From Elusimicrobia bacterium GWA2_61_42 (GTDB lineage: Bacteria; Elusimicrobiota; Elusimicrobia; Elusimicrobiales; UBA9959), in assembly GCA_001799615.1 (NCBI GenBank), contig MGTU01000009.1, forward strand, positions 576 through 64,575: a stretch of DNA of 64,000 nt, in the 5' to 3' direction. This document shows positions 50,004 through 64,000 of this stretch, piece by piece. The notes beneath the pieces are model-generated. The model searched no databases and had not been told where the DNA came from. It worked only from the letters and a program-made list of their open reading frames with translations. Each line of letters starts with the position of its first letter. Positions within the stretch are counted from its first letter, which is position 1. The position numbers were made by a program, and so were the translations under genes.

Positions 50004-50032
50004 TTGACAAGTCAAGAGGCGTCTGTTATACT
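50004..50032 (+). promoter_or_regulatory. Near-consensus sigma70 promoter of structured RNA copy A
   Basis: TTGACA, then 17 nt, then TATACT, with an A/T-rich UP-like tract upstream. The -35 sits inside the palindrome CTTGAC-AA-GTCAAG. Confidence 0.75.
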
Positions 50033-50038
50033 TCAAAT

Positions 50039-50436: not shown

Positions 50437-50455
50437 ATAGGGGAATAGCGATGTT

Positions 50456-50833
50456 TTACTTTCTTTTGCGCTCAGGAGCCAGGGCGGCGCGTATTGTAAG
50501 GTAGGTGCGCTTCTGTATGCCTGACGATTTATTGCGGATTATCCCTATGATCCTGGTTTCCCAGGTGGTGGTTCGTACTTTCGGCGCCTTCTCTTCCAGC
50601 AGGTCCGCGGCTTTCACCATCAGGGCCGCTGACACCTTGGCCAGCGTGGCCAGGCTTATCTTTTTAGTGCCCCGCTCTATCTGGCCTATATAGCTGGGGT
50701 GCAGCCCGGCCCGGTCCCCCAATTCCTCCTGGGACCAGTTCAGGCGCTTGCGGTGACCCCGTACGGAGGTCCCAAGCGCCGCGTAGATGTTTATTTTCAT
50801 GATGGCGCTTATATTTTTGCAATGAACCGGCAC
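50456..50833 (-). CDS. XRE-family helix-turn-helix transcriptional regulator
   Basis: HTH region: LNWSQEELGDRAGLHPSYIGQIERGTKKISLATLAKVSAAL. The start is uncertain (GTG 50833 or ATG 50800). Confidence 0.8.
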   Translation of the reverse strand: MPVHCKNISAIMKINIYAALGTSVRGHRKRLNWSQEELGDRAGLHPSYIGQIERGTKKISLATLAKVSAALMVKAADLLEEKAPKVRTTTWETRIIGIIRNKSSGIQKRTYLTIRAALAPERKRK

Positions 50834-50878
50834 CTCTTTCTAGAGTCCACAAGGTTTAATATGACAAACCCTGTGGTG

Positions 50879-51066
50879 TTGACACCGCCAGGGATTATCT
50901 TATATGTTTAACCGAGGGAACGGGAGAATGCTTTTTTTTGCGCCCGCCCTGCCGGCCTTAACCGGCCATTTTTTTTCGAGAGTCCCCGCGGACCCCCCTG
51001 ACACATCCGCGGGGACTCTCCAATTTGCCGCGGTACCGGTAATAGGCCTTAGGGCCTATTTTTTTC
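50879..51066 (+). promoter_or_regulatory. Candidate promoter plus structured leader or small RNA upstream of the GH104 gene
   Basis: TTGACA (50879), then 16 nt, then TATATG. Next is a perfect 14-bp hairpin gagagtccccgcgg/ccgcggggactctc (50979..51021), then the terminator-like hairpin ataggcc-ttag-ggcctat + TTTTTT (51043..51066). This lies 45 nt before the ATG. Confidence 0.4.
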
Positions 51067-51110
51067 AGGGCCCAAGGGCACTTAAAGGCCGCGCCGCCGC
51101 CTGCCATAAT

Positions 51111-52037
51111 ATGGGAATGGAAAGGATGAACCGGGCCGCTTTAATTACCCTGCTTGCGATAGCGGCGCCCGTCTGCGCTTCGGCGCAGGCCTTTGACGAA
51201 CTGCTGGCGGCTTACGCCGGCGATAAAAATTTATCCCTGCCTTCCGTCCCCGCCGCCCCTGCCCTGGCGGAAGCAGAGCAGTACCTGCCCCCCGACAATA
51301 AAGAACCCGGTTTTGAATGGCCCTCGGAAAGGAAGGACAGGGCCGCCGAGGATTTTTTCTATATAGGCAATAACACCGCTTTCCTCAAGGCTTCCACCGA
51401 CCTTGCGGCCGATCTGGCCGAAGGCAGCGGCCGGTGCGCCCTCGCCCCTAATGCCCTTTATAAAACCCAGGCCAAACCCGGCTTCCAGGGCGAGCATATG
51501 ACCGTGACCCTGGCCGCGCCGCTGCCCGGCTGCGCCATCACCCGCGGCTATCTCTACATGACCGACGTTTCCTCCAGCTCGGCCGGCGGGGCCTGGGAGC
51601 TGCCCAGGACGGTGAGGGCCTTCATGGATACCCTGGCTTTCGCCGAGGGCACCAAGGCCCGTTATAATTATATTTTCACCTTCGTCACCTTCAACAGCTA
51701 CGCGGACCATCCCCGCAAAGCCATCTGCGCCGGCAAACTGTGCTCTACGGCCGCCGGGCGCTACCAGTTCCTTTCTAAAACCTGGGACGGCCTGGCCCCC
51801 GGCCTGGGCCTTACGGAGTTCACCCCGCCCAGCCAGGAAAAAGCGGCGCTTGAGATCATCCGCCGCGCCGGCGCCTACAACAGGGTGCTCAAATCCAACG
51901 TCTATGAGAATTTCACTTCCGCCCTCGCCAAACTGAACACCACCTGGGCCTCGCTGCCCGGCAGCCCTTACGGTCAGCCCACCCACCCTACCTCGGAACT
52001 GTGGAAAGTCTATAAAGCCGCCCTCGCCAAATATTGA
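51111..52037 (+). CDS. Secreted GH104-like (phage lambda R-type) lytic transglycosylase/muramidase with unknown N-terminal domain
   Basis: The signal peptide MNRAALITLLAIAAPVCASAQA follows the ATG cluster at 51111/51117/51126. The C-terminus is FAEGT...YADHP...STAAGRYQFLSKTWD. The ORF-track N-terminal 69 aa are treated as leader. Confidence 0.7.
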   Translation: MGMERMNRAALITLLAIAAPVCASAQAFDELLAAYAGDKNLSLPSVPAAPALAEAEQYLPPDNKEPGFEWPSERKDRAAEDFFYIGNNTAFLKASTDLAADLAEGSGRCALAPNALYKTQAKPGFQGEHMTVTLAAPLPGCAITRGYLYMTDVSSSSAGGAWELPRTVRAFMDTLAFAEGTKARYNYIFTFVTFNSYADHPRKAICAGKLCSTAAGRYQFLSKTWDGLAPGLGLTEFTPPSQEKAALEIIRRAGAYNRVLKSNVYENFTSALAKLNTTWASLPGSPYGQPTHPTSELWKVYKAALAKY

Positions 52038-52137
52038 TCCGCTCCGCCCTGTTGCCCGGCCCGCCCGCGCGGGCCTTCGCTGTTTAAGGGCCGCGGCCCG
52101 TCAATACGGCGTCGCCTTAATATCTTATAATTGACTT

Positions 52138-55100
52138 ATGGGAAAGCCCGCGGCAACCGCAGCGCAGGTGTTGGAGGGGGATAAAACCCTTAAATTCCCG
52201 CACGCCATCCTGATCAGCGCCTCCGCCGGCTCCGGCAAAACCTATACCCTTACCCAGCGCTATGTGCAGTTCCTGCTTTCGGAGAAAGTTCCCAATAACG
52301 ACCTTTCCGGCATCCTCGCCGTCACTTTCACCAATAACGCCGCCAAGGAAATGAAAGCCCGCATCCTGGCGTGGCTGAAGGACCTGGCGCTGAATAAGAA
52401 CTGCGAAAAAATGGACGAGACCCTGGCGCTGGTCTCCCTTTCCCGGGAAGAGGTCCATAAGCGCGCCGGGGACCTGGTGGAGCGCGTCATCGGCAACTAC
52501 TCGGATTTTCACATCCAGACCATAGACAGCTTCCTGGCCAGGGTGATGGCGGCCTCGGTGGACGAGCTGAAACTGCCGCTGAAGGCGGAGATCACCATGG
52601 CCTACGACGTACTCATAGACCTGGCGCTGTACGCCATGTTCGCCCGCATAGGCAAGGCGGACCTGCCCGCCGAGGTCGTGGATAAATTCCTGGCCGTGCT
52701 GCCCAAGACCGGCTCCTACCCGTGGAACCCCGCCCAGCGCGTAAAGGACAATTTCAACAGCTTCCTGACGCAGGAGGGCAAGACCGCGGGCGTGCTGGCG
52801 GCGGTGGCCGGGGACCACGAGGCTTTGCTCAAGGCCAAATTCGGCGAGACGCTGAAGTTCTGCGCCGGCCTGGTAAAACATTACGGCGACAAAGGGCTGT
52901 TCAAAGAGAAGTGCCTGGCCGCGCTGGAAGCGAAGAACCTCACCGACTTCCTGGCGGCCTATAAGTTCGACTACGGCATTTTCAGCGGCGTTAAAAAGAA
53001 AAGCCTGCCGGCCGGCTGGGAAAAAGACCTCGCAAGCCTGAACGAACTGGTGATAGCCCTGACCGAGCTGAACGCCGCGGCTTATTACCACCCTTACGTG
53101 GGCATCTATGACCGCTTCAAGGCCGAGCTGGAGCGCGTCAAGCGCGGCAAGACCGACGTCATTCACATCAACGACATCGCCAAGAAGCTTTCCGCCTATA
53201 TCAACGCCGAGAACGTGCCCGAGGTCTACCTGAAGCTGGGCGAACGCATCTCCCACTTCCTCATCGACGAGTTCCAGGACACCAACCGCCTGCAGTGGGA
53301 CGTCCTCCGCCCGCTGGTGGAGGAAGCCGTCTCCAAGAACGGCTCGCTGTTCGTGGTGGGGGACATCAAGCAGGCCATCTACATGTTCCGCAACGCGGAC
53401 TACAAGATCATGCGCGACCTGCTGGACAAGGCCGAGGGCAAAAAGGCCGAGGCGGCCAACCTTTCGCTGGACTCCCTGGGCGGCGAATTGAAGTACGTGA
53501 ACCTGCCCGTCAACTACCGCTCCGACGGCGAGGTGCTGAACTACGTGAACGCCCTCTTTAAAGAAAAGCTCAAGCGCGTGCCCGAGCTGATAGGCCAGGA
53601 CCTGACCGAGCTTACCGCTTATTCCCAGGCCGCGCGGCCCGACAGGCTGAAGCTCGGCTATGTGAAGACCGGCGTGCTGGAGCTTGAGGACCTCTCCGAG
53701 GCCGAGCCGCAGAAAGACTGGCTGCTGAAAGCCGTGAATTCCGCGCGCGAGCGCTACCCGCTGGGCGAGATCGCCATCCTGGTAGCCAAGAACAAGCGTA
53801 TTGAGCCGGTGGTGGAGTGGCTGACCGGCGCCGGCATCCCCGTGGCCTCGCTGAGCTCCCTGGACATACGCAAGCGCAAGGTAGTGGCCGAGCTTATCGC
53901 CTGCCTGAAGTTCCTGGAAACCCCGTCGGATGACCTTTCCTTCTCCGCCTTCATAACGGGGGATATCTTCACCAGGCTTACCGGCCTGCCGCGCGAAGAA
54001 CTGACGGAGTTCGTCTTTAATTCCCGCTTAACGGCCCCGGGCGCCCTTCTTTACGCCGCGTTCCGCAACCACGCCAGGTACAAAGAATACTGGGACAAAT
54101 ACCTCGACGAAGCCTTCCGCAAGGTCGGCTACCTGCCGCTGTACGAGCTGGTCTCGGTGGTCTGCGACGATTTCAGGCTGTTCGCCAATTTCCCTTCAGA
54201 GCAGGCCTTCCTGGCCCGGTTCCTGGACGCGGTCAGCGCGCTGGAAGCCGGCGGCGTGACCAGCCCCCGCTCTTTCATAGAGTACGCCTCCGGGGCCGAC
54301 GAGGACAAGGCCGCGCTGTTCTCCATCGCCCTGCCGGAATACCTGGACGCCGTGCGCGTGATGACCTTTCATAAATCCAAGGGCCTGGGCTTCTCGGTGG
54401 TGATCAACCTGATGTACGACGAGCGCGGCCAGAGCGACCCGATGTATTTCGAGGAGAAGGACGGCGAGATCCACGTCTACCACATCACCAAGGCGGCGGC
54501 CGAGCAGTCGGTGAAGCTCCGGCCGGTGTACGAGGGCCGCAGGACGGACGCCAACGTGCAGGACCTGAACGTGCTCTACGTGATCTCCACCCGCGCCCGC
54601 CACGAACTTTATAACCTGGTGATAAAAAAAGCCCGCAAGACCGCGGCGCCGGAGCCCAGGCTGCAGGACCTCTTCGCGCCGTTCGAGGCCGGCACCCCCG
54701 CGGAGCGCAAGCCGGAGGCCCGCCAGGCCTCCGAACCGGTGGAGGTGCCCGGCGCGGCCGCCCGTCCCGAGCAGCGCTTCGACGCGCTGAAGCCCACTTA
54801 CGGCAGCTCCTTCGACACCGCCGAGGGCGAGCTGGCGCACGCTATCCTGGCCCGCGTCACCGGGCCGTCCGACCCGGAGCGGGAACTGCCCGCCCTTTTC
54901 GACGAGCTGAGCCCCGGCTATCCTTTCAAGTTCGACAAGGTCCGGCTGGTAAAGACGCTCCTGGCTTTCCTCAGCAACTCCGAGGCCGCGAATTTCTTCG
55001 CCGACGGCCCCGGCCGGCAGGTCCTGGCCGAGGCCGAATTTATAGACAGGAACGGCGCGCTGTTCCGCATGGACCGCGTGATAATAGAAAAAGACGCCGT

Positions 55101-55263
55101 GACCGTGGTGGACTTCAAGACCGGGCGCGAGAACATGAAAAAATACGCGCCCCAGATGAAGAATTACCTGGCGATAATTTCCGAAGTGTACGGCAGGCCC
55201 GCCAAGGGCGCGCTGGCCTACGTGGACCTGCAAAAGATAGTAGAGGTTAAACCGGGAGACTGA
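52138..55263 (+). CDS. UvrD/Rep-type superfamily-1 helicase fused to a C-terminal PD-(D/E)XK (RecB-family) nuclease, AddA-like
   Basis: Walker A SASAGSGKTYTL. Also LIDEFQDTN, VGDIKQAIYMFRNAD and TFHKSKGLGF. The nuclease motif is RMDRVII...VVDFKTG...QMKNY. Confidence 0.8.
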   Translation: MGKPAATAAQVLEGDKTLKFPHAILISASAGSGKTYTLTQRYVQFLLSEKVPNNDLSGILAVTFTNNAAKEMKARILAWLKDLALNKNCEKMDETLALVSLSREEVHKRAGDLVERVIGNYSDFHIQTIDSFLARVMAASVDELKLPLKAEITMAYDVLIDLALYAMFARIGKADLPAEVVDKFLAVLPKTGSYPWNPAQRVKDNFNSFLTQEGKTAGVLAAVAGDHEALLKAKFGETLKFCAGLVKHYGDKGLFKEKCLAALEAKNLTDFLAAYKFDYGIFSGVKKKSLPAGWEKDLASLNELVIALTELNAAAYYHPYVGIYDRFKAELERVKRGKTDVIHINDIAKKLSAYINAENVPEVYLKLGERISHFLIDEFQDTNRLQWDVLRPLVEEAVSKNGSLFVVGDIKQAIYMFRNADYKIMRDLLDKAEGKKAEAANLSLDSLGGELKYVNLPVNYRSDGEVLNYVNALFKEKLKRVPELIGQDLTELTAYSQAARPDRLKLGYVKTGVLELEDLSEAEPQKDWLLKAVNSARERYPLGEIAILVAKNKRIEPVVEWLTGAGIPVASLSSLDIRKRKVVAELIACLKFLETPSDDLSFSAFITGDIFTRLTGLPREELTEFVFNSRLTAPGALLYAAFRNHARYKEYWDKYLDEAFRKVGYLPLYELVSVVCDDFRLFANFPSEQAFLARFLDAVSALEAGGVTSPRSFIEYASGADEDKAALFSIALPEYLDAVRVMTFHKSKGLGFSVVINLMYDERGQSDPMYFEEKDGEIHVYHITKAAAEQSVKLRPVYEGRRTDANVQDLNVLYVISTRARHELYNLVIKKARKTAAPEPRLQDLFAPFEAGTPAERKPEARQASEPVEVPGAAARPEQRFDALKPTYGSSFDTAEGELAHAILARVTGPSDPERELPALFDELSPGYPFKFDKVRLVKTLLAFLSNSEAANFFADGPGRQVLAEAEFIDRNGALFRMDRVIIEKDAVTVVDFKTGRENMKKYAPQMKNYLAIISEVYGRPAKGALAYVDLQKIVEVKPGD

Positions 55264-55265
55264 GA

Positions 55266-56642
55266 ATGAAAAAAGACCTTAAAGAATACGCGGCCCTGCT
55301 GGGCGGCTACAGCGAGCTGCGCCTGCAGGAGAACCGGAACGCCAATATCTCCCTGATGAACGGGAACCTGGTCGCTAACGGCCAAACGGCCGCCGGCGGC
55401 CTGTCGGCCAGGGTTTACAGGAACGGGGCCTGGGGCTTCGCCTCCGCCCCCGGGGCCGACGTCGAAACAGTTAAAAAAGTGCTGGCCGCCGCCGCCCGCA
55501 ACGCCGAGTTCCTGGATTCACGCCTTAAAAAAGGCCTGCCGCCGCTGCCTTCCCTGCCCGGCAGCGCCGTGCACGACCTCTCGACCAGGAAAAACCGCAA
55601 AAGCCAGAAGGAACTGGTGGACTTCGCCACCGAGATCGACGGCTACATAGCCGGGAAATATAAAGCCCTTAAAGGCCGGCGCGTAAGCATACAGGGCCTG
55701 GACATGGAGAAGGCCTATGTTAATTCCTACGGCTCTTCTTCTTACTCTATGACGCCGCGCTCCACTTTAAGGGTGGTCATGTTCACCGAAAAGGACGGCG
55801 TCCCGGTGCAGGCTTCGGACTATGTCTGCAGCGTGGGCCATTTCGAGGACGTTTTCAGCGAGCCGGCCGCGCTGTTCTCCTTCGTGGACGGGATCTACGA
55901 GAAGCTCAGGCGCAGCGCCGAAGGCGTTTACCCCGAAGCCGGCCTGAAGGAATGCATCCTGGACGCCGACCTGGCCGGCATACTGGCGCACGAGGCCGTG
56001 GGCCACACTACCGAGGCGGACCTGGTGCTGGGCGGTTCCGTTTCCGCCGGCCTGATGGGCAAGGTGGTCGCCAGCCCCATGGTGAACCTGACGGACTTCG
56101 CGCATACCTGCCTGGGCAGGCCCTGCCATATCCCGGTCTACGTGGACGACGAAGGCGTAACGGCCAAAGACGCCGTGATCATAAAGGACGGCGTGCTGAC
56201 TTCCTACATGCACAACCGCGAGTCGGCCGCGCATTTCGGCGCGGCGCCTACCGGCAACGCCCGGGCCTCGGAATTCTCGGACGAGCCCCTTATCCGCATG
56301 CGCAATACGGCTATACTGCCGGGCAAGGACAAGCTGGCGGACATGGTAAGTTCCGTCAAGGACGGTTATTACCTGGCCGGCTGGACCAACGGCCAGGCCG
56401 ACTCCACCAGCGAATTTACTTTCGGGGTGATGGGCGGCTACGAAATAAAGAACGGCAAGTTCGCCAGGTCCCTGCGGGGAGCCACGGTTTCCGGCGTGGC
56501 CTTCGAACTGCTCAAGACCGTCACCATGCTTTCTTCCGACATGAGCTGGTCCGCCATCGGCATGTGCGGCAAGAAGCAGAGCATCCCGGCCGCCATGGGC
56601 GGCCCGGCCGTAAAATGCCTTATCAACATAGGGGGGCGCTGA
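55266..56642 (+). CDS. tldD: TldD-family metalloprotease
   Basis: Has the HEAVGH zinc motif. It is 458 aa and adjacent to its PmbA partner. Confidence 0.85.
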   Translation: MKKDLKEYAALLGGYSELRLQENRNANISLMNGNLVANGQTAAGGLSARVYRNGAWGFASAPGADVETVKKVLAAAARNAEFLDSRLKKGLPPLPSLPGSAVHDLSTRKNRKSQKELVDFATEIDGYIAGKYKALKGRRVSIQGLDMEKAYVNSYGSSSYSMTPRSTLRVVMFTEKDGVPVQASDYVCSVGHFEDVFSEPAALFSFVDGIYEKLRRSAEGVYPEAGLKECILDADLAGILAHEAVGHTTEADLVLGGSVSAGLMGKVVASPMVNLTDFAHTCLGRPCHIPVYVDDEGVTAKDAVIIKDGVLTSYMHNRESAAHFGAAPTGNARASEFSDEPLIRMRNTAILPGKDKLADMVSSVKDGYYLAGWTNGQADSTSEFTFGVMGGYEIKNGKFARSLRGATVSGVAFELLKTVTMLSSDMSWSAIGMCGKKQSIPAAMGGPAVKCLINIGGR

Positions 56643-56643
56643 C

Positions 56644-57939
56644 ATGTCCGACAAGAACACCGCTTTATTCTGCCTGGAAAGCCTTAAGCAGGCCGGCGCC
56701 GACAAGGCGCAGTGCGTGCTCACCAACACCGAGAAGCACGAGTTCAACGTGGACTGCGACAAACTCTCGCTGCTGCGCACGGGGTACGACACTTCCATAA
56801 AGTTCACGGCCATCAAGGACGGCCGCAGGGGCACCGCCTCGCTTAACGGCTGCGCCAGGCCGGAGATCGAGAAAGCGGCGGCTTCGGCGGTGGAATTCTC
56901 CAAAGCCTCGCCTTCGGACCCGGCTTACGATATCGCCCCCGCGCAGCCCGCCAAAGTTTTTGAGAGCGGCCTGGCCGCGCCGGACCTGGGCGCCATGTAC
57001 GACAGGCTCTCCGCTCTGCTGGCGCAGGCCCGCGCGAAGTACCCCCGCCTTAAACTGGTGCAGGCTATCGTGAACTTCAACCGCAAGACCGAGTATTTCC
57101 TGAACTCCAACGGCGTGGACTTCACTTCTTCCACCGGGTATTACGACGGCTCCGTTTTTTTCCTGTCGCAGGACGGCAAAAAAACCTCCTCGTTCAATTA
57201 TTCCGGGTTCACTTCCCGCGAGATGGAAAAAGAACTGATCGGGCGGGTTTCCATCGACACGCTGTTCCGCCAGTCGGCCGAGCAGCTGGACACGAAACCC
57301 CTGAACGGCAAGTTCGAGGGGGAGATCATAGTCACCCCCGACTGCCTGATAAACTTCCTGCAGTTCATAACGGCCATGGCGCTGCGCGACGCTTCGCTGA
57401 TCTCCGGCAGCAGCGTCTACAAGGACAAGCTGGGCAGGCAGATAGCTTCCCCGGGCTTCACCCTGCATTCCCGGCCCGTCTCCTACGAGATCGTGGACGG
57501 CTACTTCGTAACCCCGGACGGCTTTGAGGCCGAGAACACGACCATAATAGAGAACGGCGTGCTGAAGACCTTCCTGCTGAGCCTTTACGGCGCCAACAAG
57601 ACCGGCCTGCCGCGGGTTTCCTGCTCCGCCGGCTGCGACGTGATAGAGCCGGGCGATAAAACGCTGGAAGAGCTGGCGGCCCCCATAAAGAAAGGCCTGC
57701 TGGTCACGCGCGTGTCCGGCAACAACCCCAACGAAAGCGGCGATTTCTCCGGCGTGGCCAAGAACAGCTACTATATCGAGAACGGCAAGATCCTCTATCC
57801 CGTCAGCGAGACCATGATCTCCTGCAATATTCCCAAGATGTTCATGGATATCAGGGGTATCTCCAAAGAACGGGTGGATTTCGGCAGCGCCGTCTACCCG
57901 TGGCTCTCCTTCGGGGGAGTGACGGTCTCCGGCAAATAG
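56644..57939 (+). CDS. pmbA: PmbA/TldE-family protease subunit
   Basis: 431-aa TldD/PmbA fold lacking the HExxH motif. It starts 1 nt after the tldD stop. Confidence 0.8.
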   Translation: MSDKNTALFCLESLKQAGADKAQCVLTNTEKHEFNVDCDKLSLLRTGYDTSIKFTAIKDGRRGTASLNGCARPEIEKAAASAVEFSKASPSDPAYDIAPAQPAKVFESGLAAPDLGAMYDRLSALLAQARAKYPRLKLVQAIVNFNRKTEYFLNSNGVDFTSSTGYYDGSVFFLSQDGKKTSSFNYSGFTSREMEKELIGRVSIDTLFRQSAEQLDTKPLNGKFEGEIIVTPDCLINFLQFITAMALRDASLISGSSVYKDKLGRQIASPGFTLHSRPVSYEIVDGYFVTPDGFEAENTTIIENGVLKTFLLSLYGANKTGLPRVSCSAGCDVIEPGDKTLEELAAPIKKGLLVTRVSGNNPNESGDFSGVAKNSYYIENGKILYPVSETMISCNIPKMFMDIRGISKERVDFGSAVYPWLSFGGVTVSGK

Positions 57940-57949
57940 GAACGCGGGA

Positions 57950-59008
57950 ATGGACATGAACGTAGTTAAATTCGATTTCCTGGCGGCTTCGGACGCGGAC
58001 TGGGAGGCCTATTTCCGGCACAAGGACGAGATCCTGCGCGAGGCCGACCCGGAAGAACCCCTGCTGCCCCGCGAAAAAAGAAAGGCGGTCTTCATTTCTT
58101 CCGCGGCCAGCCCGTACCGCCAGGCCCGCATGTTCCTTATGTTCTCCCCCGGGGACGCCGCCGCCGCGGGGTTCGCTTTCCTTTCCGTGGAAACCCCCCG
58201 AAGTCCCACGTATGAGACCAATAAGCATTTCGCCCACCTTACGCTCTCCGTCTCGAAAAAATACAGGGGCAAGGGCGCTGGCCGCCTATTGCTGAAGCGC
58301 GTGATAGAAGAGGCCGCCGCGCTGGAGCCGGCCATCAGCGAACTGCTCACCCCCGTGGTGCTGGAATCCGGCGGGCGGTTCCTGGCGGGCCTGGGCGCCA
58401 CCGTAGCGCTTGAGAACGCGGAGAACCGGCTGAATTTCAAGGACGTCGACTGGAAGATGGCGCAGGCCTGGGCCGAAGAGGGCGCCCGCAGGAACCCGGC
58501 CACCGCGCTTGTAACCGTGCAAACCATCCCCCGGGAGGACCTGGAGGATTACAGCGCGGCCTATACGGAAACCAGCGCCCAGGCCCCCCAGGGCGACATA
58601 GAGGGGAAGTTCGTCTATACCCCGGAGATGATCCGTTTCTCGGAACAGAAAATAATAGCCCAGGGCTATACGCCGATAACGATGTTCACCAGGGAAAGCG
58701 ACGGAAAAATAAGCGGCTTGACCGAGATGATGTACCTGCCGGAAGCGGGGCACAAGGCGACGCAGATGCTTACCGGCGTGCGCGAGCAGTACAGAGGCCG
58801 GGGGCTGGGGAAACTCCTGAAGGCCAGCATGCTGCTGCATATAAGGAAAGAATTTCCCGGAGTAAAACATGTGGCGACAGGCAACGCCGACTCCAACGCG
58901 CCCATGCTGGCCATAAACAACAGGCTGGGTTTTAAAAAACACCTGGCGATAAAACTTTACAAACTGAAGCTCGGCCCGAAGCTGCCGGAAAAGGCGGGGC
59001 CGCCGTGA
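57950..59008 (+). CDS. Tandem GNAT-family N-acetyltransferase
   Basis: There are two acetyl-CoA-binding motifs: KKYRGKGAGRLLL and EQYRGRGLGKLLK. Confidence 0.7.
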   Translation: MDMNVVKFDFLAASDADWEAYFRHKDEILREADPEEPLLPREKRKAVFISSAASPYRQARMFLMFSPGDAAAAGFAFLSVETPRSPTYETNKHFAHLTLSVSKKYRGKGAGRLLLKRVIEEAAALEPAISELLTPVVLESGGRFLAGLGATVALENAENRLNFKDVDWKMAQAWAEEGARRNPATALVTVQTIPREDLEDYSAAYTETSAQAPQGDIEGKFVYTPEMIRFSEQKIIAQGYTPITMFTRESDGKISGLTEMMYLPEAGHKATQMLTGVREQYRGRGLGKLLKASMLLHIRKEFPGVKHVATGNADSNAPMLAINNRLGFKKHLAIKLYKLKLGPKLPEKAGPP

Positions 59009-59691
59009 GATCCAGGTTCTCTATCTGGGCTATCGTCGCCGCCAACCTGCTGCCGCTGGTCCTGGTCGCGCTCGGCTACTGGGGCGTAACCGAGATCCTG
59101 GCGCTTTACTGGATCGAGACCGCCATCGTCGGATTTTTTACCGTCCTGAAGGTCTTTTTCGCCTCGGCGCCGGTGCCGTATCACAAAACCGTCACTTTTG
59201 AAATGCTCAAGTCGGCTCCGCATCTGAAAACGCTGCCGCTGCTGGCCGGGGACCTGGGTTTTATCGGGAAGATCCTGATCTCCCTCTTTTTCGCTTTTCC
59301 TTTCATTATGTTCATGGCGCTGAACGGACTTATTCTTTACCTGGCGCTGGTCCTTGTTTATCCCGGCGCCAGCGTGCCGCCGCTCTTAAGCCTGAAATGG
59401 GGGCTGCTGTCGCTGTTCCTGGGTCACGGCGCCGCTTTCGCGGCGGATTATCTCGCCAGCGGTGAATTTCGCAGGACCAGGCCCGGCGACTGCGTGAACG
59501 AGCCTTTTCACAGGCTGGCTATAATGCAGCTTACCCTGGCCGCCGGGGCCGGCCTCTCCGGCTCGTTCGGCGGCATGCTGTATATAATGAGCGTTTTCGT
59601 CGTGGCCAAGCTCGCCATCGAACTGCGCCCGCCGGGCGGCTACATCGGCGCCGCGGCAGAAACGCCAAAAACCGACGCGTCAGCACGTTGA
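59005..59691 (+). CDS. Polytopic membrane protein, unknown function
   Basis: 228 aa with about 6 hydrophobic helices. It overlaps the GNAT stop by 4 nt. Confidence 0.55.
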   Translation: MRSRFSIWAIVAANLLPLVLVALGYWGVTEILALYWIETAIVGFFTVLKVFFASAPVPYHKTVTFEMLKSAPHLKTLPLLAGDLGFIGKILISLFFAFPFIMFMALNGLILYLALVLVYPGASVPPLLSLKWGLLSLFLGHGAAFAADYLASGEFRRTRPGDCVNEPFHRLAIMQLTLAAGAGLSGSFGGMLYIMSVFVVAKLAIELRPPGGYIGAAAETPKTDASAR

Positions 59692-59717
59692 CGCTTTCTC
59701 CTGCTATACTATATAAG

Positions 59718-61592
59718 ATGACTCCCGAGGAAATCCTTAAAAAACGCTGGGGCTACGGCGCCTTCAAACCTCTGCAGAAAGAGGCTATAGAGGCCGCGCT
59801 GGCCGGGAGGGACTGTTTGGTGGTGCTGCCTACGGGCGGCGGCAAAAGCCTTTGCTACCAGCTGCCGGCGGCCATGGGAAAGGGCCTGGTGCTGGTGGTG
59901 TCCCCGTTGATAGCCCTGATGGACGACCAGGTGGCCGCCGCGCGCGAAGCCGGCCTGGCCGCCGACGCGCTGCATTCCAATTTGAAGGCCGGCCCCAAGC
60001 GCGAGGCTTACCAGAACCTCTCCAGCGGCGTTACTGAACTGCTTTATGTCAGCCCGGAGCGCCTGCTCTCCGGCGACCTTTACCAGCTGATAGCTCCCCG
60101 GCTTATACTGGCCGCGGTAGACGAGGCGCACTGCGTGTCCCATTGGGGCCACGAGTTCCGCCCGGAGTACCGCCGCCTGACGGAGGCGCTGGACCTTTTT
60201 CCCAGGGCGGCCCGCATGGCGCTTACGGCCACGGCTACGCCCGTGGTGCAGGAGGATATCCGCGCGCAGCTGGCGCTGCGCTCGCCCGAGATCCTGATCG
60301 GCCACCCTGACCGCCCCAACCTTGTTTACCGCGCTTTCCCGCGCCGGGACCAGTCCAGGCAGGTGCTGGAGGTGGTGAAGCGCCACCCCGGCGAGGGCGG
60401 CATAGTTTACGCCCAGACCCGCAAGGACGTCACGCGCCTGGCCGCGAACCTTAAGAAGGAAGGGGTTTCCTGCGCGCCTTACCACGCGGGGCTCAACGCC
60501 GAGGAGCGCCGCCAGGCGCAGGACGATTTCGTGAACGAGCGGCTGGACGTGATAGTGGCCACCATCGCCTTCGGCATGGGCATAGACCGCTCCAACGTGC
60601 GCTACGTGGTGCACGCCAACACGCCGCGCTCGGTGGAGCATTACCAGCAGGAGAGCGGCCGCGCCGGGCGCGACGGCGAGCCCGCCGACTGCACGCTGCT
60701 GTTCTCGGCGGCGGACCTGGCCATGCACCGCTGGATGGCCAAGAAAGACGTCACGCTTTCCGCTGAGCGCGAGCGCGCGCTGGAGAAGCAGCTGCGCGAC
60801 ATCGGGCGCTTCGCGGTGGCGCCGGTGTGCCGGCACGGGCAACTGGCCGAGCATTTCAGCGCGCCTTACCCGGTGGCGCCGCGCGGGGAAGGGGGCTGCG
60901 GGGCCTGCGACGTCTGCCTGGGGGAGACCAAGGGGCTGTCGGACGCGGAGGCGCTGCTGACGGCTAAAAAAGTTTTGAGCGCGGCGTGGCGGGCCGAGGG
61001 GCGCTACGGCACGGGCTACGTGGTGAATCTGCTGCTGGGGCGGCCTAACGACCGCATGACGGGCAACGGCCACGACAAGCTTCAGGTGTTCGGCCTGCTG
61101 AAAGAGGCGGGCGAGCCGGCGGTGAGGTCTTGGATAGACCAGCTTATCGTGCAGGATTTCCTGGAGGTGACGGAGGAGAGCGAATACCCGCTGCTGCGGA
61201 TCACGGCGGCGGGCCGCGCGCTGTGCCAGGACAAAGGCGCGGTGCGGCTGGGGCTGCCGGTGCCGCCCAAGGCGGGCAAGAAGAAGTCCAAGGCGCTGAA
61301 GAAGGCGGGCGCTGATTTCTCCGCTTCGGACGAAGCGCTCTTCGAGCGGCTGCGCGCTATCCGGCGGGCGCTGGCGGACAAGGCGGGCATCCCGCCGTAC
61401 GTTATCTGCCAGGACGCGACGCTGCTGGAAATTTCTTCGGTGAAGCCGCGGACCCCGGAGGCGCTGCTGGAGATCAAGGGGATGGGGGAGAAGCGGGTGC
61501 AGAAATACGGCAGGATCTTCCTGGACGCCGTCGCCGGGCGCGCGCCGGAAATCCCTGCGCCGTCCGCGGTATCGGATGAGGCGGAGTTCTGA
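59718..61592 (+). CDS. recQ: ATP-dependent DNA helicase RecQ (helicase + RQC + HRDC)
   Basis: From ATG 59718: MTPEEILKKRWGYGAFKPLQ. Also has LPTGGGKSLCYQLPA, VDEAHCVSHWGHEFRPEY, and the HRDC region LFERLRAIRRALADKAGIPPYVI...IKGMGEKRVQKYG. The ORF-track start at 59688 is a TTG overlapping the upstream gene. Confidence 0.9.
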   Translation: MTPEEILKKRWGYGAFKPLQKEAIEAALAGRDCLVVLPTGGGKSLCYQLPAAMGKGLVLVVSPLIALMDDQVAAAREAGLAADALHSNLKAGPKREAYQNLSSGVTELLYVSPERLLSGDLYQLIAPRLILAAVDEAHCVSHWGHEFRPEYRRLTEALDLFPRAARMALTATATPVVQEDIRAQLALRSPEILIGHPDRPNLVYRAFPRRDQSRQVLEVVKRHPGEGGIVYAQTRKDVTRLAANLKKEGVSCAPYHAGLNAEERRQAQDDFVNERLDVIVATIAFGMGIDRSNVRYVVHANTPRSVEHYQQESGRAGRDGEPADCTLLFSAADLAMHRWMAKKDVTLSAERERALEKQLRDIGRFAVAPVCRHGQLAEHFSAPYPVAPRGEGGCGACDVCLGETKGLSDAEALLTAKKVLSAAWRAEGRYGTGYVVNLLLGRPNDRMTGNGHDKLQVFGLLKEAGEPAVRSWIDQLIVQDFLEVTEESEYPLLRITAAGRALCQDKGAVRLGLPVPPKAGKKKSKALKKAGADFSASDEALFERLRAIRRALADKAGIPPYVICQDATLLEISSVKPRTPEALLEIKGMGEKRVQKYGRIFLDAVAGRAPEIPAPSAVSDEAEF

Positions 61593-61617
61593 GCTTATTC
61601 AGCCACCGAGGTTATAA

Positions 61618-62661
61618 ATGACGAACGACAAGAAAGATCCGGGTACTACGCTGCTGGTGCTGCTGGCCGTTTTCCTTTTCCTGTTCCTGGGCATGATCTG
61701 GCCTTACCTGATAGCGCTGGTGATGGGCCTGCTGCTGGCCATCCTCAGCCGGCCGCTTTATAACGCGCTGGTAAAGAGACGCCTGGGGCCGCAGCTGGCG
61801 GCGGGCTTGTCCATGGCGGTGATCCTGCTGGCTATCATAGGGCCGCTGGCGGTTTTTGCGGTCACGGCGGTCAAGCAGGCCGTGGCCCTGGCGGCTTACC
61901 TGGCCGACGAGCGCGGCGCGGAATTCGTGAGGGCGGCGGTGGCCGCGGTTACGGCGCTGAAGCCGGTGCAATGGGTTATAGACAGCCCGGCTGACCTGCA
62001 GGCCAAGGGGCTGGAGTTCGCCCAGAGCGCGGGCGGCGCGCTGAGCCGCATGATCCTGGTGCAGGCTGCCGCCCTGCCGGACCTGCTGCTTAAGGTGGTT
62101 ATTTCCCTGCTTACCTGGTTCTTCCTGCTTTTCGAGGGGGAAACTTTTCTTAACTGGTTTATGCGCAGGGTGCCTATGGAGGCCGGCCTGCGCGGCCGCC
62201 TGATCTCTTCTTTCAGGGCTACGGCCGCTTCCACGGTGTGGGCGACTTCGGCGGCCGCGGCGGCGCAGGCGCTGGTGGTGATGGCGGGTTTCTGGGCGCT
62301 GGGGGTGCCGGCTATTTTCCTGGCCGGCGGGGCTACGTTCATCTTCGCCTGGATACCCATCCTGGGCAGCCTGCCGGTCTGCCTGGCGGGGGCGGTTTAT
62401 CTGTATTTCAACGGCGCGCTTTTTATGCTGGCGCTGATGGGCCTGGTGGCGGTGGTGGCGGGGCTTATGGATAACGTGGTGCGGCCTATCGTGATGAAGG
62501 GGCACGGGGATATGCACCCGCTGCTGGCGCTCATTTCAATTTTCGCCGGGATACGGATGTTCGGGGTGCTGGGCGTGATCTTCGGGCCGATCGTGGCCGC
62601 CATGCTGCTGGCTTTGCTGAACTCCTGGCAGCTGCCGGCGGCCGGAGCCGGGAATAATTGA
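61618..62661 (+). CDS. AI-2E family transporter (PerM/YhhT-like permease)
   Basis: 347 aa, polytopic, with the C-terminal motif ...VRPIVMKGHGDMHPLLALISIFAGIRMFGVLGVIFGP. Confidence 0.8.
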   Translation: MTNDKKDPGTTLLVLLAVFLFLFLGMIWPYLIALVMGLLLAILSRPLYNALVKRRLGPQLAAGLSMAVILLAIIGPLAVFAVTAVKQAVALAAYLADERGAEFVRAAVAAVTALKPVQWVIDSPADLQAKGLEFAQSAGGALSRMILVQAAALPDLLLKVVISLLTWFFLLFEGETFLNWFMRRVPMEAGLRGRLISSFRATAASTVWATSAAAAAQALVVMAGFWALGVPAIFLAGGATFIFAWIPILGSLPVCLAGAVYLYFNGALFMLALMGLVAVVAGLMDNVVRPIVMKGHGDMHPLLALISIFAGIRMFGVLGVIFGPIVAAMLLALLNSWQLPAAGAGNN

Positions 62662-62734
62662 TCCCGGCGGGCCGCGCCGCCCGACGTGGAAAGGCGCCGG
62701 GGATATTAATTTTAAATTTATTTTTATTTACCCC

Positions 62735-62763
62735 TTGACAAGTCAAGGGGTTGCTGTTATACT
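62735..62763 (+). promoter_or_regulatory. Near-consensus sigma70 promoter of structured RNA copy B
   Basis: TTGACA, then 17 nt, then TATACT. It is preceded by the A/T-rich tract attaattttaaatttatttttattta. Confidence 0.75.
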
Positions 62764-62769
62764 CGGTAT

Positions 62770-63200
62770 GTAGTCCTGATCTTTTAAATGCGTCGGCGGT
62801 GTAGTCGAGGTGCTCTCGGTGGTGTGCGGTCGAGCTGATCTCGGCGTTGAGGTTTTCCGGTCCGCGGGTCCTGCCCGCCCCGACGCGGTTTTTCCCGGTT
62901 CGCGGCCTGTGTTCTCCGGTCTGGCGCTTTAGCGGCGCCGCTTGGTCCGCTGTTCGAGGCTTGCGTTCTCCGGGTTTTCCCTGGTCCGTCTCCCGCCCTT
63001 TCGGGCGGCGCGGTTGCCGGGGTCCTGGTTCGGCGCTCCGTCTTCTGGCGGTCTGCCTCCGGGTGGGTGTTCCGGCCCTCGGTCTCCGGCGCTAATGCGC
63101 CTCCTGGTTCCCGGTTCGCTCCTTACGTGGTCCGTAGTTCCCAAGTACCCTGGCCTGTGCGCCAATTGAAGAGCCCCCGTTCCCGGGGGCTCTCAATTTT
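62770..63200 (+). ncRNA. Unclassified ~430-nt A-depleted structured RNA, copy B
   Basis: The 5' end (atgtagtcctgatcttttaaatgcgtcggcgg) is identical to copy C. It shares internal conserved blocks and the 3' motif cctggcctgtgcgccaattgaagagcccccg with the other copies. The terminator is agagcccccg-ttcc-cgggggctct + AATTTT. Confidence 0.7.
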
Positions 63201-63258
63201 ATATAGTGCGCGTTTAGCTTTGGGTGGTGGGCCGCGAGAAGCCCAGTCGGAGCCTGCC

Positions 63259-63372
63259 GAGGGTATGGGCCCGGCGGGCACCGGGTCGGCCACACCGTGG
63301 CCGCCCTCCTCACTCGGCCTCGTCGCTATGCAAGCCTCGGCCTCCGTGAGGGCCCGCCGAACCCATACCCTC
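63259..63372. other. About 114-nt imperfect palindrome predicted to fold as a multi-stem junction, in the spacer between RNA copies B and C
   Basis: The outer 12-bp stem is cgagggtatggg/cccataccctcg. After a 2x2 internal loop comes the 8-bp stem cggcgggc/gcccgccg. Inner hairpins are cggccac-acc-gtggccg and cctcac...gtgagg. Confidence 0.4.
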
Positions 63373-63562
63373 GTCAGTCCCCTCCGTGATGGTGGCGTAA
63401 TAACAGTTTTGCCGGGTGATTGCCGGAGATCTTCGGGAGGGTGAAAGGGAGGAATTTTGAAAATAAAAAAATGCGGGGGAAGGGCTGCCGGAAAAAAATA
63501 GGCGGCGAACGGGATTTAGCTCGACGTGAAAATAAGAAAATAAAATATTTTAAGATTACCCC

Positions 63563-63591
63563 TTGACAAGTCAAGGAGTTGCTGTTATACT
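63563..63591 (+). promoter_or_regulatory. Near-consensus sigma70 promoter of structured RNA copy C
   Basis: TTGACA, then 17 nt, then TATACT. It is preceded by aaaataagaaaataaaatattttaagatta. Confidence 0.75.
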
Positions 63592-63597
63592 CGGTAT

Positions 63598-64000
63598 GTA
63601 GTCCTGATCTTTTAAATGCGTCGGCGGTCTCGGTGTGCGGTCGAGCTGATCTCGGTGGTTGCGGGTTTCGGGCTTTGCCCCGGCCCCCGGCGCGGTTTCC
63701 CCCGGTTCGCGGCCAGTGTTTTTTGGCTTGGCGTCTTGCGGCGTCGGCGTTCGAGGTTGGTTGCTGGCGCGCGTTCTACGGGGTGTTCCCTGGTCCGTCT
63801 CCCCCACCTAAGTGGGGCGCGGTTGCCGGGGTCCTGGTTCGGCGGCCCGCCTTTCGCGGCGGCAACCTGCTCCCGGGTGGGTGTTCCGGTTCTCGGTTCG
63901 GCGCTAACGCGCTGCCTGGTTCCCCGGTCTGCCCCTTACGCGGTCTCAGTCGCGGTTTACAAGTACCCTGGCCTGTGCGCCAATTGAAGAGCCCCCGTCC
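63598..64000 (+). ncRNA. Unclassified A-depleted structured RNA, copy C (3' terminator cut by the window edge)
   Basis: It is collinear with copies A and B. The window ends inside the terminator 5' arm (gaagagcccccg). Confidence 0.65.

Follow-up and report, generated by a model that had tools for sequence, protein, structure and literature searches.

Several described RNA systems provide reference points for the locus studied here. The CsrB/CsrC and RsmX/Y/Z RNAs, like the Elusimicrobia RNA, are encoded by stand-alone genes of a few hundred nucleotides with their own promoter and intrinsic terminator, and exist as several paralogs. CrcZ/CrcY of Pseudomonas, which titrate Hfq/Crc, share with it a length of about 400 nt, the presence of paralogs, repeated short motifs (predicted to be single-stranded) and a dedicated regulated promoter, the latter being a prediction in our case. 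The TRAP sites of the Bacillus trp leader are triplets repeated with a 5–7-nt period, as is the GGU of the GCGGU words described below. Finally, OLE, ROOL, GOLLD and raiA are, like this RNA, lineage-restricted, several hundred nucleotides long, composed of multiple domains and supported by covariation, with a function that cannot be deduced from the sequence.

Elusimicrobia are almost entirely uncultivated. The literature searched held nothing relevant on Elusimicrobia ncRNAs or on the promoter palindrome reported here, and no lineage-specific regulatory RNA of this group was found described in it. The window analysed is a 64,000-nt stretch of contig MGTU01000009.1 of Elusimicrobia bacterium GWA2_61_42, and all positions refer to this whole window. 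It contains three paralogous ncRNA copies of about 400 nt (A, B and C), all on the + strand.

Gene copies, promoters and distribution

Copy A is a stand-alone ncRNA gene, one of the three paralogs. Its RNA spans positions 62770–63200 (about 431 nt, counted from the inferred start to the U-tract of the terminator), as delimited by the promoter, the terminator and the paralog alignment (nhmmer E = 1.8e-101). Copy B extends over 63563–64000, with a promoter at 63563–63591 and the RNA from about 63598, its terminator being cut by the window end (E = 3.6e-109). Copy C lies at 50004–50436, with a promoter at 50004–50032 and the RNA at about 50039–50436 (E = 5.2e-112). The copies are about 75–77% identical to each other. 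The view of an earlier note, which took copy A for a terminator-ended non-coding RNA present in several paralogs, is borne out by the promoter and terminator scans and the paralog alignment.

The promoter of copy A (62731–62763) comprises the palindrome CCCCTTGACAAGTCAAGGGG at 62731–62750, the -35 hexamer TTGACA at 62735–62740, a 17-nt spacer and the extended -10 element TGTTATACT, with its hexamer at 62758–62763. The promoter scan gives the copies 11 of 12 matches to the sigma-70 consensus, plus the TG extension. The element CCTTGACAAGTCAAG + N6 + CTGTTATACT is invariant in all seven full copies of alignment A2, which joins the three window copies to four others found by an RNA-core pattern, and in family genes the -35 hexamer is embedded in a palindrome of 16–20 bp. 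The region upstream of copy A (62682–62730) carries CGACGT at 62682–62687 and an AT-rich, UP-element-like stretch at 62704–62730. Across the family, 16 of 43 distinct promoters have CGACGT or ACGTCG 35–45 nt 5´ of the -35 hexamer (the background is 0.05 per 90 nt), and the AT fraction upstream of the promoters is 0.64 versus 0.39 for the loci. The promoter is thus predicted to be very strong, implying a high abundance of the RNA. Moreover, the conserved palindrome and the upstream hexamer (CCTTGACAAGTCAAGG + CGACGT) suggest a candidate site for a DNA-binding transcription regulator.

Pattern scans of Elusimicrobia genomes and metagenomes yield 35 distinct full-length relatives of 257–596 nt, and a search with a 24-mer of the core finds five Elusimicrobia MAGs. 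With the promoter pattern alone, 46 metagenome loci are obtained, and the RNA follows in all except five (L008, L015, L020, L050 and L016). Three of these (L008, L015 and L020) are AT-rich and bear no relation to the RNA beyond matching the promoter pattern, and the match in L016 lies at a contig end and aligns only in part. Two actinomycetotal loci (L003 and L005) match the core pattern over 28 nt by chance. In the data searched, the family is confined to Elusimicrobia.

Three conserved chromosomal neighbourhoods surround the RNA with housekeeping genes; the adjoining genes encode a polysaccharide deacetylase, a secreted lysozyme-like protein, an XRE regulator, RecQ, an AI-2E transporter and AddA. 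Between copies C and A, further ORFs correspond to TldD/PmbA, GNAT, DUF6498, RecQ and AI-2E. Viral contigs, phage records and plasmid records contain no homologs, and these neighbourhoods likewise argue against a mobile-element or phage-borne RNA. The genes downstream vary by locus (another RNA copy, an oppositely oriented XRE gene or a secreted 200-aa protein) and often lie on the opposite strand, which indicates that the RNA acts on its own and not as a leader. A riboswitch or cis-regulatory leader is also rejected on the invariance of the terminator stem.

Searches against known RNA classes are negative. Rfam cmscan detects no family at the RNA loci, either over the whole window at the gathering threshold or over 62600–64000 at E ≤ 10; its sole match in the window at the gathering threshold is a tRNA (45396–45467), and four weak matches at E ≤ 10 are due to chance. 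ARAGORN finds no tRNA or tmRNA in 49900–64000, and both are rejected. A highly diverged member of a known housekeeping RNA class missed by the Rfam models, such as a 6S/Ms1-like RNA polymerase-binding RNA, would agree with the predicted rRNA-like promoter strength, the paralogs and the conserved genomic positions, and 6S-type RNAs diverge strongly across phyla. However, not even a match at E ≤ 10 is obtained, the RNA is a chain of local hairpins and lacks the paired ends and central bubble of the roughly 180-nt 6S rod, and its 257–596 nt far exceed the 6S size; this reading is highly improbable. Neither Rfam nor phages, plasmids or the literature searched yield a match; the RNA family is apparently new, and we consider it very probable that it is a real, structured ncRNA family not described before.

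Adenine depletion and the fold

The RNA is extremely poor in adenine. Copy A contains 27 A in 431 nt (6.3%), or 20 in 381 nt (5.2%) without the terminator, and only 11 (3.2%) over RNA positions 21–360, which confirms the depletion that the earlier note had put at about 15 A in some 340 nt (4–5%). Copies B and C had been described as similar, and the same properties are measured in both, with A contents of 5–7% for the three copies against a window mean of about 18%. Among 380-nt windows across the 64 kb (mean 18.2% A, sd 3.6), the deepest minima are the three RNA loci (4.5–5.8%), and the value never drops below 8.7% elsewhere. Each of the 35 distinct relatives has 2.8–10.1% A. In the family alignment, A occupies 2.7% of the helix columns versus 10.6% of the other columns, the few adenines being located in loops and linkers.

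The scarcity of A explains the open frames of the locus, both strands of which are largely open. The earlier statement that all three plus-strand frames are stop-free is valid for the central part of copy A, but each frame has three stops over RNA positions 1–396, and the longest stop-free stretches reach 78–116 codons. The paralogs differ by indels of 1, 2, 4, 5, 16, 17 and 20 nt, and these frame-breaking changes exclude a coding function. The "protein clusters" that run through the RNA in ORF clustering are artefacts of nucleotide similarity. Gene callers leave the locus empty, or may call its stop-poor frames as ORFs, and recognising the family corrects the annotation of such loci.

Adenine poverty could in principle be a functionless by-product of transcription-associated mutation bias and repeat slippage, acting on a transcribed spacer, on a leader that regulates in cis or on sequence wrongly called as coding. 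Where transcription is very high, the non-template strand can become skewed to G and T, and the pentamer and decamer arrays of the RNA resemble slippage products. However, GC skew is close to zero and it is AT skew that is extreme; helices show compensatory changes; every frame is broken by indels; and neither the identity nor the orientation of the downstream gene is conserved. Furthermore, the A-poor state is retained in 35 distinct members across about 25–30% sequence divergence, and also in lineage-specific insertions. This makes a by-product the least probable of the readings considered.

Comparison of the member sequences shows that the RNA begins with a conserved single-stranded leader, after which the hairpin domains P1 to P6 follow one another as a chain. 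Pairing was scored on half alignments; variable inserts spoil RNAalifold on full-length MAFFT alignments. The 5´ leader GUAGUCCUGAUCUUUUAAAU (62770–62789) is single-stranded, conserved in nearly all members and includes the boxA-like GAUCUUUUAAA. The boxA consensus is GYUCUUUAANA (PMC5725501), with which GAUCUUUUAAA agrees at 9 of 11 positions, a lead only; most members retain the GNUCU core, with variation in the AA part. Pairing of the leader with the 3´ A-rich linker is inconsistent between members on inspection by eye and is rejected.

P1 (62790–62886) is closed by GCGUCGG at 62790–62796 with CCGACGC at 62880–62886 (in copy C, 50061–50067 with 50115–50121) and encloses a variable insert of small GAG-NUGNU-CUC hairpins and GCGGU words. 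It is 93% paired, with compensatory changes in three of six pairs (e.g., GAGCCUG/CAGGCUC and GCUCCGG/CCGGAGC). P2 (62894–62974) is closed by CCCGG at 62894–62898 with CCGGG at 62970–62974 and has the inner helix CGCGGCC/GGCUUGCG; its helices are 82–84% paired, and the closing pairs change to CCCAGG/CCUGGG in L006 and L023 and to CCAGGG/CCCUGG in L002/L028. P3 (62979–63022), a three-part hairpin (CCCUGGU / CCGU / CCGCCC-loop-GGGCGG / GCGG-UU / GCCGGGG), holds the most conserved block of the family; helices 1–3 are 87.5–97% paired, with compensatory changes in five of six inner pairs. P4 (63024–63063) has a closing helix of CCUGG with CCGGG (92% paired) and an inner part of variable length. A nested alternative pairing the 5´ strand of P3 with the 3´ strand of P4, returned by RNAalifold on the half alignments, receives no compensatory support; the preference for local hairpins rests on L023, with its perfect local CCCGGCGC/GCGCCGGG stem.

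P5 (63065–63121) pairs GGGUG at 63065–63069 with CGCUC at 63117–63121 and CCGG with CCGG, and ends in the apical hairpin GGCGC-UAAU-GCGCC. Pairing reaches 83% in helix 5, where six sequences show a change from G-C to C-G, and 72% in helix 6. The 3´ tail (63122–63150) is formed by degenerate G-Y-R-G-U pentamers (GUGGU, GUAGU) and then an A-containing linker; in copy C (50360–50387) it reads GCGGUGCGGUCUGCGGUCUAUGCGGU. P6 (63151–63164; UGGC-CUGUGC-GCCA) is 93% paired, its closing U-A pair becoming C-G in seven sequences. Finally, the intrinsic terminator detected by the terminator scan (63169–63200) is AAGAGCCCCCG-UUCC-CGGGGGCUCUC followed by a U-tract, the stem of copy C lying at 50405–50429. 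Each copy has a 10-bp G+C-rich terminator stem, which across the family is 97% paired, shows covariation at the apical pair only and is near-invariant among members with a complete 3´ end.

Overall, the 3´ half is 89.6% paired versus 38–55% when the partners are slid, and its 15 compensatory pairs, a number reached in none of 500 shuffles, compare with 8.1±1.7 in those shuffles. The 5´ half is 87.5% paired versus 37–63% when slid. Single-sequence folding is uninformative for sequences of G, C and U only, the MFE z-score being -3.0 for copy A and -0.4 for copy C. The comparative data show that the helices consist almost exclusively of G-C and G•U pairs: the covariation-backed core helices contain 120 G•U versus 29 A-U pair cells (about fourfold). 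This gives direct support to the G:U-rich scaffold that the earlier note had raised as an alternative.

The fold also bears on an architectural or self-assembling RNA, which would form homo-oligomers or a stable RNP and perform a structural job as OLE, ROOL and GOLLD do, titrating no regulator. Such an RNA could use the palindromic CCGG/GGCC/GCGC words (CCGG is enriched in the family, 234 versus 155 expected), and GCGGU arrays can self-pair around G•G mismatches. The hairpin modules recur, opened by UUCCYGGUYCG and, in P2–P4, closed by CCGGG; the core is strongly conserved, unpaired positions included; and the near-invariant terminator stem and the abundance implied by the strong UP-element-like promoter point the same way. 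However, the near absence of A removes the A-minor and tetraloop-receptor contacts used by known large folded RNAs, length and domain content vary (P2 and P4/P5 are absent from some members), and the RNA is not accompanied by genes for membrane or partner proteins. A purely structural job is rather unlikely.

The (U)GCGGU words and their placement

CGGT is found 11 times in copy A, 12 in B and 16 in C. The earlier note had counted 16 in copy A, which is the number of copy C, and had expected about two; mononucleotide shuffles give 4.1 and dinucleotide shuffles 5.3–5.7, the window background being 2.1 per 380 nt. At least nine are reached only at the three RNA loci. The context [GC]CGGT[TC]C, thought to account for most occurrences, applies to three of the 11 in copy A, where GGT[TC]C occurs 10 times against 2.4–3.5 expected. 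The enrichment itself, for which exact k-mer statistics had been proposed, persists when judged against dinucleotide shuffles and the genome background, and also in an analysis of words across the family.

Among the 35 distinct relatives, each RNA holds 7–22 CGGT and 0–2 of the complement ACCG. In 26 non-redundant members, the most over-represented words are CGGT (351 versus 121 expected), GCGGT (190 versus 44) and TGCGGT (80 versus 8.2, about tenfold), these statistics being inflated by the shared ancestry of homologs. Complements of GCGGT are scarce in the same members, with no ACCGC and 11 GCCGC. The lineage-specific insertions are also A-poor and CGGT-rich, with 4.4 CGGT per 100 nt versus 3.6 in conserved columns. 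No (GGG)x4 motifs indicative of a G-quadruplex were found, although two-tetrad GG motifs may exist.

About half of the motifs lie at conserved helix ends (e.g., GCGG|UU and CCGG|U), and the rest form tandem arrays. The (U)GCGGU arrays are located in the 5´ domain and the 3´ tail, with units 5–7 nt apart and a variable copy number; GCGGT spacing peaks at 5–7 nt, and positions peak at 80–85% of the RNA length. Array length differs between lineages, with (TGCGGTC)x2.1 in copy C and a maximum of 14 copies of the 10-nt unit GCAGUGCGGU (RNA strand) in L018. When the motifs are mapped onto the structure, as had been proposed, the tandem arrays have no fixed pairing partner, but the core copies sit at helix ends and not in hairpin loops. 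The predicted unpaired probability is 0.26 for motifs versus 0.33 for the rest, a comparison from single-sequence folding and hence weak for G/C/U-only sequences; MFE folding pairs the arrays, although they lack a fixed partner and complements are scarce. The array population would fit a multivalent single-stranded binding platform. The enrichment as a whole could be largely architectural, given the conserved structured core and the many motifs at conserved helix ends.

The repeats might instead act by base pairing, as a sponge or regulator in which (U)GCGGU pairs with ACCGC(A)-type sequences of an sRNA, mRNAs or tRNA/rRNA segments. The motif is strand-asymmetric, the lack of ACCGC in the 26 members leaving the repeats free to pair in trans, and the arrays are multivalent. 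However, no target with repeated ACCGC has been identified and nothing in the window suggests one, a 5-nt seed is short, and G/U-rich repeats can be satisfied by wobble pairs inside the RNA. We judge pairing of this kind improbable.

Proposed role and relation to known systems

The RNA has the architecture of a sequestering sRNA: a stand-alone unit in three paralogs with a multivalent, over-represented motif in 5–7-nt tandem spacing. The many GGA motifs expected of a CsrB/RsmZ-type RNA that sequesters CsrA are lacking: GGA is present once in copy C and not at all in A and B (0–5 per RNA in the 26 non-redundant members), and ANGGA is absent from the three copies. The CsrB, CsrC, RsmX, RsmY and RsmZ models give no match (window at the gathering threshold; 62600–64000 at E ≤ 10), and the genes around the RNA include neither csrA nor a TRAP-like gene. 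The earlier note had proposed a search for co-occurring RNA-binding protein genes; none accompanies the RNA in any of its three conserved neighbourhoods. Two neighbours were rejected as partners: a recurrent 308/377-aa protein with a signal peptide and a lysozyme-like C-terminus, and the 200-aa protein, which looks secreted; neither is an RNA-binding candidate.

Sequestering or scaffolding of a factor, as suggested by the sequence features, is possible, with a likelihood that we place somewhat below an even chance. The RNA would be abundant and resistant to nucleases and would form an extended scaffold, not the compact fold of a ribozyme or riboswitch, since it has essentially no means of making A-minor contacts. 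A trans-acting RNA-binding factor would be offered many GGU-containing (U)GCGGU words, partly as repeated helix-end modules and partly as tandem arrays 5–7 nt apart. The likeliest factor would be an oligomeric or multidomain protein, titrated or organised by the RNA with the logic of CsrB/RsmZ or CrcZ and a different motif and partner. Transcription may be controlled by a DNA-binding regulator acting via the palindrome and CGACGT.

A wider proposal, which we advance tentatively and by analogy, is that the family could be the RNA arm of an Elusimicrobia-specific global post-transcriptional control, Csr/Rsm-like in another code. Its elements would be an A-free, G•U-stitched scaffold, GGU-containing pentamers in 5–7-nt register, an oligomeric RNA-binding protein and a palindrome-binding regulator. 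Among natural structured RNA classes, the family might also be the first to work essentially without adenine and, hence, without A-minor contacts.

A multi-copy ncRNA with a conserved promoter (predicted to be very strong) and terminator and a unique composition offers a handle on regulation in Elusimicrobia. Moreover, a conserved structured RNA of 260–600 nt with 3–10% A, and less than 3% in helices, is an outlier for RNA biology, and it illustrates the extent to which a natural fold can rest on G-C and G•U pairs alone. Possible reasons for avoiding A include resistance to nucleases or toxins, evasion of Hfq-, CsrA- or ribosome-type binders, and strand-specific folding.

Finally, the comparison with known systems can be extended. 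The start of the gene recalls an rrn leader, a predicted strong UP-element-type promoter being followed within about 10 nt by the boxA-like UGAUCUUUUAAA (relative to the consensus in PMC5725501). Unlike in an rrn leader, no rRNA follows, 9 of 11 boxA positions agree and the AA part is variable; by analogy, this leader could shield the untranslated RNA from Rho. OLE, ROOL, GOLLD and raiA have ordinary A contents and A-dependent tertiary motifs, in contrast to the 3–10% A found here, and the present RNA has no Rfam match. The 5–7-nt repeat geometry would suit an oligomeric ring or multidomain binder, but TRAP recognises (G/U)AG triplets of a leader that acts in cis, whereas this RNA is terminator-ended, proposed to act in trans and built on a repeat without A. 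The CrcZ motifs are A-rich (AANAANAA), of opposite composition, and there is no sequence or model match to CrcZ. A further parallel is with CsrB/RsmZ RNAs, which also carry many copies of a short word in numbers that vary by lineage, and whose GacA/UvrY box is comparable to the palindromic promoter element. However, the motif is (U)GCGGU instead of A(N)GGA, it is placed at helix ends and in linear arrays instead of in hairpin loops, and, unlike CsrB/RsmZ, the Elusimicrobia RNA has a strongly conserved structured core.

A multi-copy family of adenine-poor RNA genes

The window carries three members of a family of structured ncRNAs that have stand-alone genes in several copies, helices of G-C and G•U pairs and an extreme shortage of adenine. 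These plus-strand paralogs are copy C (50039-50436), copy A (62770-63200) and copy B (from 63598, truncated by the window end). They belong to a 233-kb metagenome scaffold in which the RNA locus was left without annotation by gene callers. A sigma-70 promoter stands a few bases 5´ of each copy (TTGACA, 17-nt spacer, TATACT and a TG extension; 11/12 consensus), with the palindrome CCTTGACAAGTCAAGG enclosing its -35 hexamer, and at the 3´ end of the complete copies a G+C-rich hairpin of 10 bp, AAGAGCCCCCG...CGGGGGCUCUC, precedes a T-run. The paralogs are ~75-77% identical and differ by indels of 1, 2, 4, 5, 16, 17 and 20 nt, so that no reading frame is kept among them; a coding gene was rejected, since indels of 1-20 nt break every frame. 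The absence of stops in three frames reported in the earlier note holds for the central part (open stretches of 78-116 codons) and fails elsewhere.

Adenine makes up 6.3%, 6.9% and 6.3% of copies A, B and C, compared with a window mean of 18.2%, in agreement with the depletion first noticed in copy A and with the likeness claimed for the other two. Copy A without its terminator has 5.2% A, and RNA positions 21-360 only 3.2%. Across 380-nt windows of the 64 kb (mean 18.2%, sd 3.6), the deepest minima are the three RNA loci (4.5-5.8%), every other region having at least 8.7%. This poverty is no general trait of the organism's structured RNAs, since the tRNA in the window has 19% A.

The excess of CGGT also persists in comparison with shuffled and background sequence, with numbers that differ from those of the earlier note: copies A, B and C contain 11, 12 and 16 occurrences, so that the count of 16 attributed to copy A fits copy C, and the expectation of about 2 becomes ~4.1 in mononucleotide and 5.3-5.7 in dinucleotide shuffles. 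Over the window as a whole the background amounts to 2.1 per 380 nt; values of at least 9 are found at the three RNA loci only. The extended form [GC]CGGT[TC]C, thought to be predominant, accounts for 3 of the 11 occurrences in copy A, where GGT[TC]C is found 10 times (2.4-3.5 expected).

A 24-nt core pattern, scanned against one genome per species, revealed full homologs in five Elusimicrobia metagenome-assembled genomes; two Actinomycetota matches were chance hits. The promoter, CCTTGACAAGTCAAG, 6 nt and CTGTTATACT, was identical in 7/7 full copies then known, an unselected identity given that no search criterion had included the promoter. In metagenome contigs, a promoter-only pattern retrieved 46 loci, with the RNA directly downstream in all but five. 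The exceptions are L050, L016 (an RNA match at the contig end, only partially aligned) and three AT-rich pattern matches without RNA homolog, unrelated to the family (L008, L015 and L020); L015 and L020 share the same downstream ORF, which we take, by eye, to be a phage-like repressor.

The 35 distinct full-length members (26 in the non-redundant set, at <85% identity) span 257-596 nt. All are A-poor (2.8-10.1%), and each contains 7-22 CGGT vs 0-2 of the complement ACCG (35/35). One of them, L033 (449-1044, 596 nt), is a fused tandem duplication whose unit 1 has no terminator and whose unit 2 restarts at the region of the first hairpin domain. Viral contigs, phage genomes and plasmids gave no match to the family, and a mobile element was rejected. 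Rfam 15 returned no match at gathering thresholds, nor at E<=10, and ARAGORN found nothing at the RNA loci, ruling out tRNA and tmRNA; no description of such an RNA was found in literature searches. The family is a real and apparently new ncRNA family, unusual in composition and motif.

Other repeats are present in the window. Between copies A and B, at 63248-63375, the long and imperfect inverted repeat CGAGGGTATGGGCCCGGCGGG...CCCGCCGAACCCATACCCTCG surrounds a TCGGCCACACCGTGGCC hairpin (predicted RNA fold -109.9 kcal/mol, z=-4.4). This repeat may be another structured RNA or an element of the REP/MITE type; a 17-mer from it recurs just 3´ of the RNA in L013 (4754-4770) and in L050 (3650-3666, minus strand). 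A very large gene region at 32176-35292 contains ~17 tandem 177-nt (59-codon) repeats of families D1, D2 and D4 and probably encodes a giant repetitive surface protein, and at 7649-8480 a unit of ~277 nt occurs in three tandem copies, 84-86% identical (family D3).

Hairpin domains and the (U)GCGGU motif

Comparative analysis supports a predicted chain of hairpin domains, P1 to P6 from 5´ to 3´, followed by the terminator. In the 3´ half (31 sequences), a model in which P3, made of three stacked helices, is followed by P4, P5, P6 and the terminator has 89.6% of cells paired vs 38-55% with partner columns slid, and 15 pairs are changed on both sides vs 8.1±1.7 in shuffles; whichever measure is taken, 0/500 shuffles reach the value observed. 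For the 5´ half (17 sequences), P1, P2 and the accompanying helices P1a and P2a are 87.5% paired vs 37-63% slid. Compensatory variants occur in P1 (GCGYCG/CGRCGC, GAGCCUG/CAGGCUC and GCUCCGG/CCGGAGC) and P2 (CCCGG/CCGGG vs CCCAGG/CCUGGG), G-C becomes C-G in six sequences in P5, and U-A becomes C-G in seven in P6. Beside these covarying helices, a by-product without function is very improbable.

Core helices comprise 904 G-C, 120 G•U and 29 A-U pair cells. The A share is 2.7% in helix columns and 10.6% in the remaining columns; in copy A, adenines concentrate in the 5´ leader, the loops and the 3´ linker. The plus strand is the functional one, because G•U pairs would become C•A mismatches on the opposite strand, and in view of the promoter and terminator. 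Tandem and nested pairings are not fully separable, because CCYGG and CCGGG strands recur several times; the nested variant of RNAalifold lacks compensatory support, and L023, which forms a perfect local stem, speaks for the tandem model. Single-sequence thermodynamic folding leaves almost nothing unpaired and does not distinguish the GCGGU motifs from the rest; we regard such folding of a G/C/U-only RNA as uninformative.

(U)GCGGU is strongly over-represented, strand-asymmetric and partly tandem. An unbiased word analysis of the 26 non-redundant members, with leader and terminator left out and dinucleotide shuffles as reference, ranked CGGT first among 4-mers (351 observed, 121 expected), GCGGT among 5-mers (190 and 44) and TGCGGT among 6-mers (80 and 8.2), with z-scores inflated through common ancestry. 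The motif falls into two populations. The first consists of conserved copies at core helix ends: GCGG with UU beyond the end (3´ side of P3), CGGCGCGG with UUU beyond it (after P1), and CCGG with U beyond it at the repeated module UUCCYGGUYCG, which opens P2, P3, P4 and part of P5 (8 modules in copy A, 6 in copy C, 0-6 elsewhere). The second consists of tandem arrays, within the variable P1 insert and in the P5-P6 interval, which contains two to four units in most members (copy C, GCGGUGCGGUCUGCGGUCUAUGCGGU); successive GCGGT words are most commonly spaced by 5-7 nt. In the sub-lineage of L018 and L043, P4 is missing and the 3´ tail has expanded into an array, which in L018 (2408-2556) is 149 nt long with ~14 copies of the 10-nt unit GCAGUGCGGU (RNA strand). 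Lineage-specific insertions hold both traits (4.4 CGGT per 100 nt, 8% A).

Potential partners of the 190 GCGGU words are scarce (ACCGC 0, GCCGC 11, GCCGU 11), and the motif is therefore not merely one strand of ordinary helices. If these repeated words are exposed, the RNA could be a base-pairing sponge for ACCGC-type sequences, which we consider quite improbable.

Chromosomal context and promoter

The RNA recurs in three chromosomal positions: 17 loci, copy C among them, follow a polysaccharide deacetylase gene, 12 loci follow the gene for a secreted lysozyme-like protein, and 9 loci follow recQ, which in the window is separated from copy A by an AI-2E transporter gene. None of these three contexts offers a gene for an RNA-binding partner. 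Downstream genes vary and frequently lie on the opposite strand, which argues against a cis-regulatory leader; riboswitches and leaders were rejected accordingly. The commonest non-deacetylase neighbour is a secreted protein of 308-377 aa (window 50904-52037; homologs e.g. L021 3477-4400) without Pfam hit and with a C-terminal lysozyme-like signature, AGRYQF...W. Its gene precedes the RNA in 12 loci and follows it in the window and L051, a linkage that looks like conserved synteny, not function.

DNA upstream of the -35 has an AT fraction of 0.64, vs 0.39 for the loci, and the AT-rich block adjoining the -35 often includes AAATATTT. CGACGT/ACGTCG occurs ~40 nt upstream of the -35 in 16/43 distinct promoters (background 0.05 per 90 nt), in the window at 62682-62687 and ~63516-63521. 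The word and the block may represent a candidate activator site plus UP element and, together with the invariant palindrome, suggest a very strong promoter, probably bound by a regulator. In L050 (contig Ga0116170_10033321, 2411, minus strand), the palindromic promoter precedes a different terminator-ended RNA of ~90 nt, AUCUUUGGUCGUCCGCUAUAGGCGGACCACC...AAAACCCGGCACAGCCGGGUUUUCU, so that this promoter may mark out a small regulon. The conserved leader UGAUCUUUUAAA matches boxA (consensus GYUCUUUAANA, PMC5725501) at 9/11 positions, a lead towards possible Nus-dependent protection of the untranslated transcript.

Possible role and comparison with known RNAs

Compact RNAs depend on A-minor and tetraloop-receptor contacts. 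With so little A these are largely unavailable, so a ribozyme or a fold that binds a ligand is less likely than an extended hairpin scaffold. A self-assembling or architectural RNA could also be built on such hairpins, an unlikely reading in our estimate. As speculation, A avoidance could also provide escape from A-dependent binders and nucleases, such as Hfq (ARN sites), CsrA (GGA sites), Shine-Dalgarno-like sites and A-specific toxins. A diverged housekeeping RNA is very unlikely; 6S RNA, the example considered, was rejected because its rod structure, its length and its Rfam model all fail to match.

We tentatively prefer, at somewhat less than even odds, a decoy or scaffold for a putative RNA-binding factor, because the architecture matches protein-titrating RNAs, the A shortage suits a scaffold, and the 5-7-nt register of GCGGU resembles the TRAP-type reading of repeated triplets. 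Like CsrB/RsmZ and CrcZ, this RNA is ~400 nt long, has paralogs and a multivalent short motif, and its gene runs from its own promoter, which carries a conserved palindrome, to a terminator. However, GGA motifs number 0, 0 and 1 in copies A, B and C, and the Rfam models of that class do not match. Thus, the RNA would work most like the CsrB/RsmZ/CrcZ class, yet it is not a member, differing from it in a conserved structured core and in motifs that lie outside loops.
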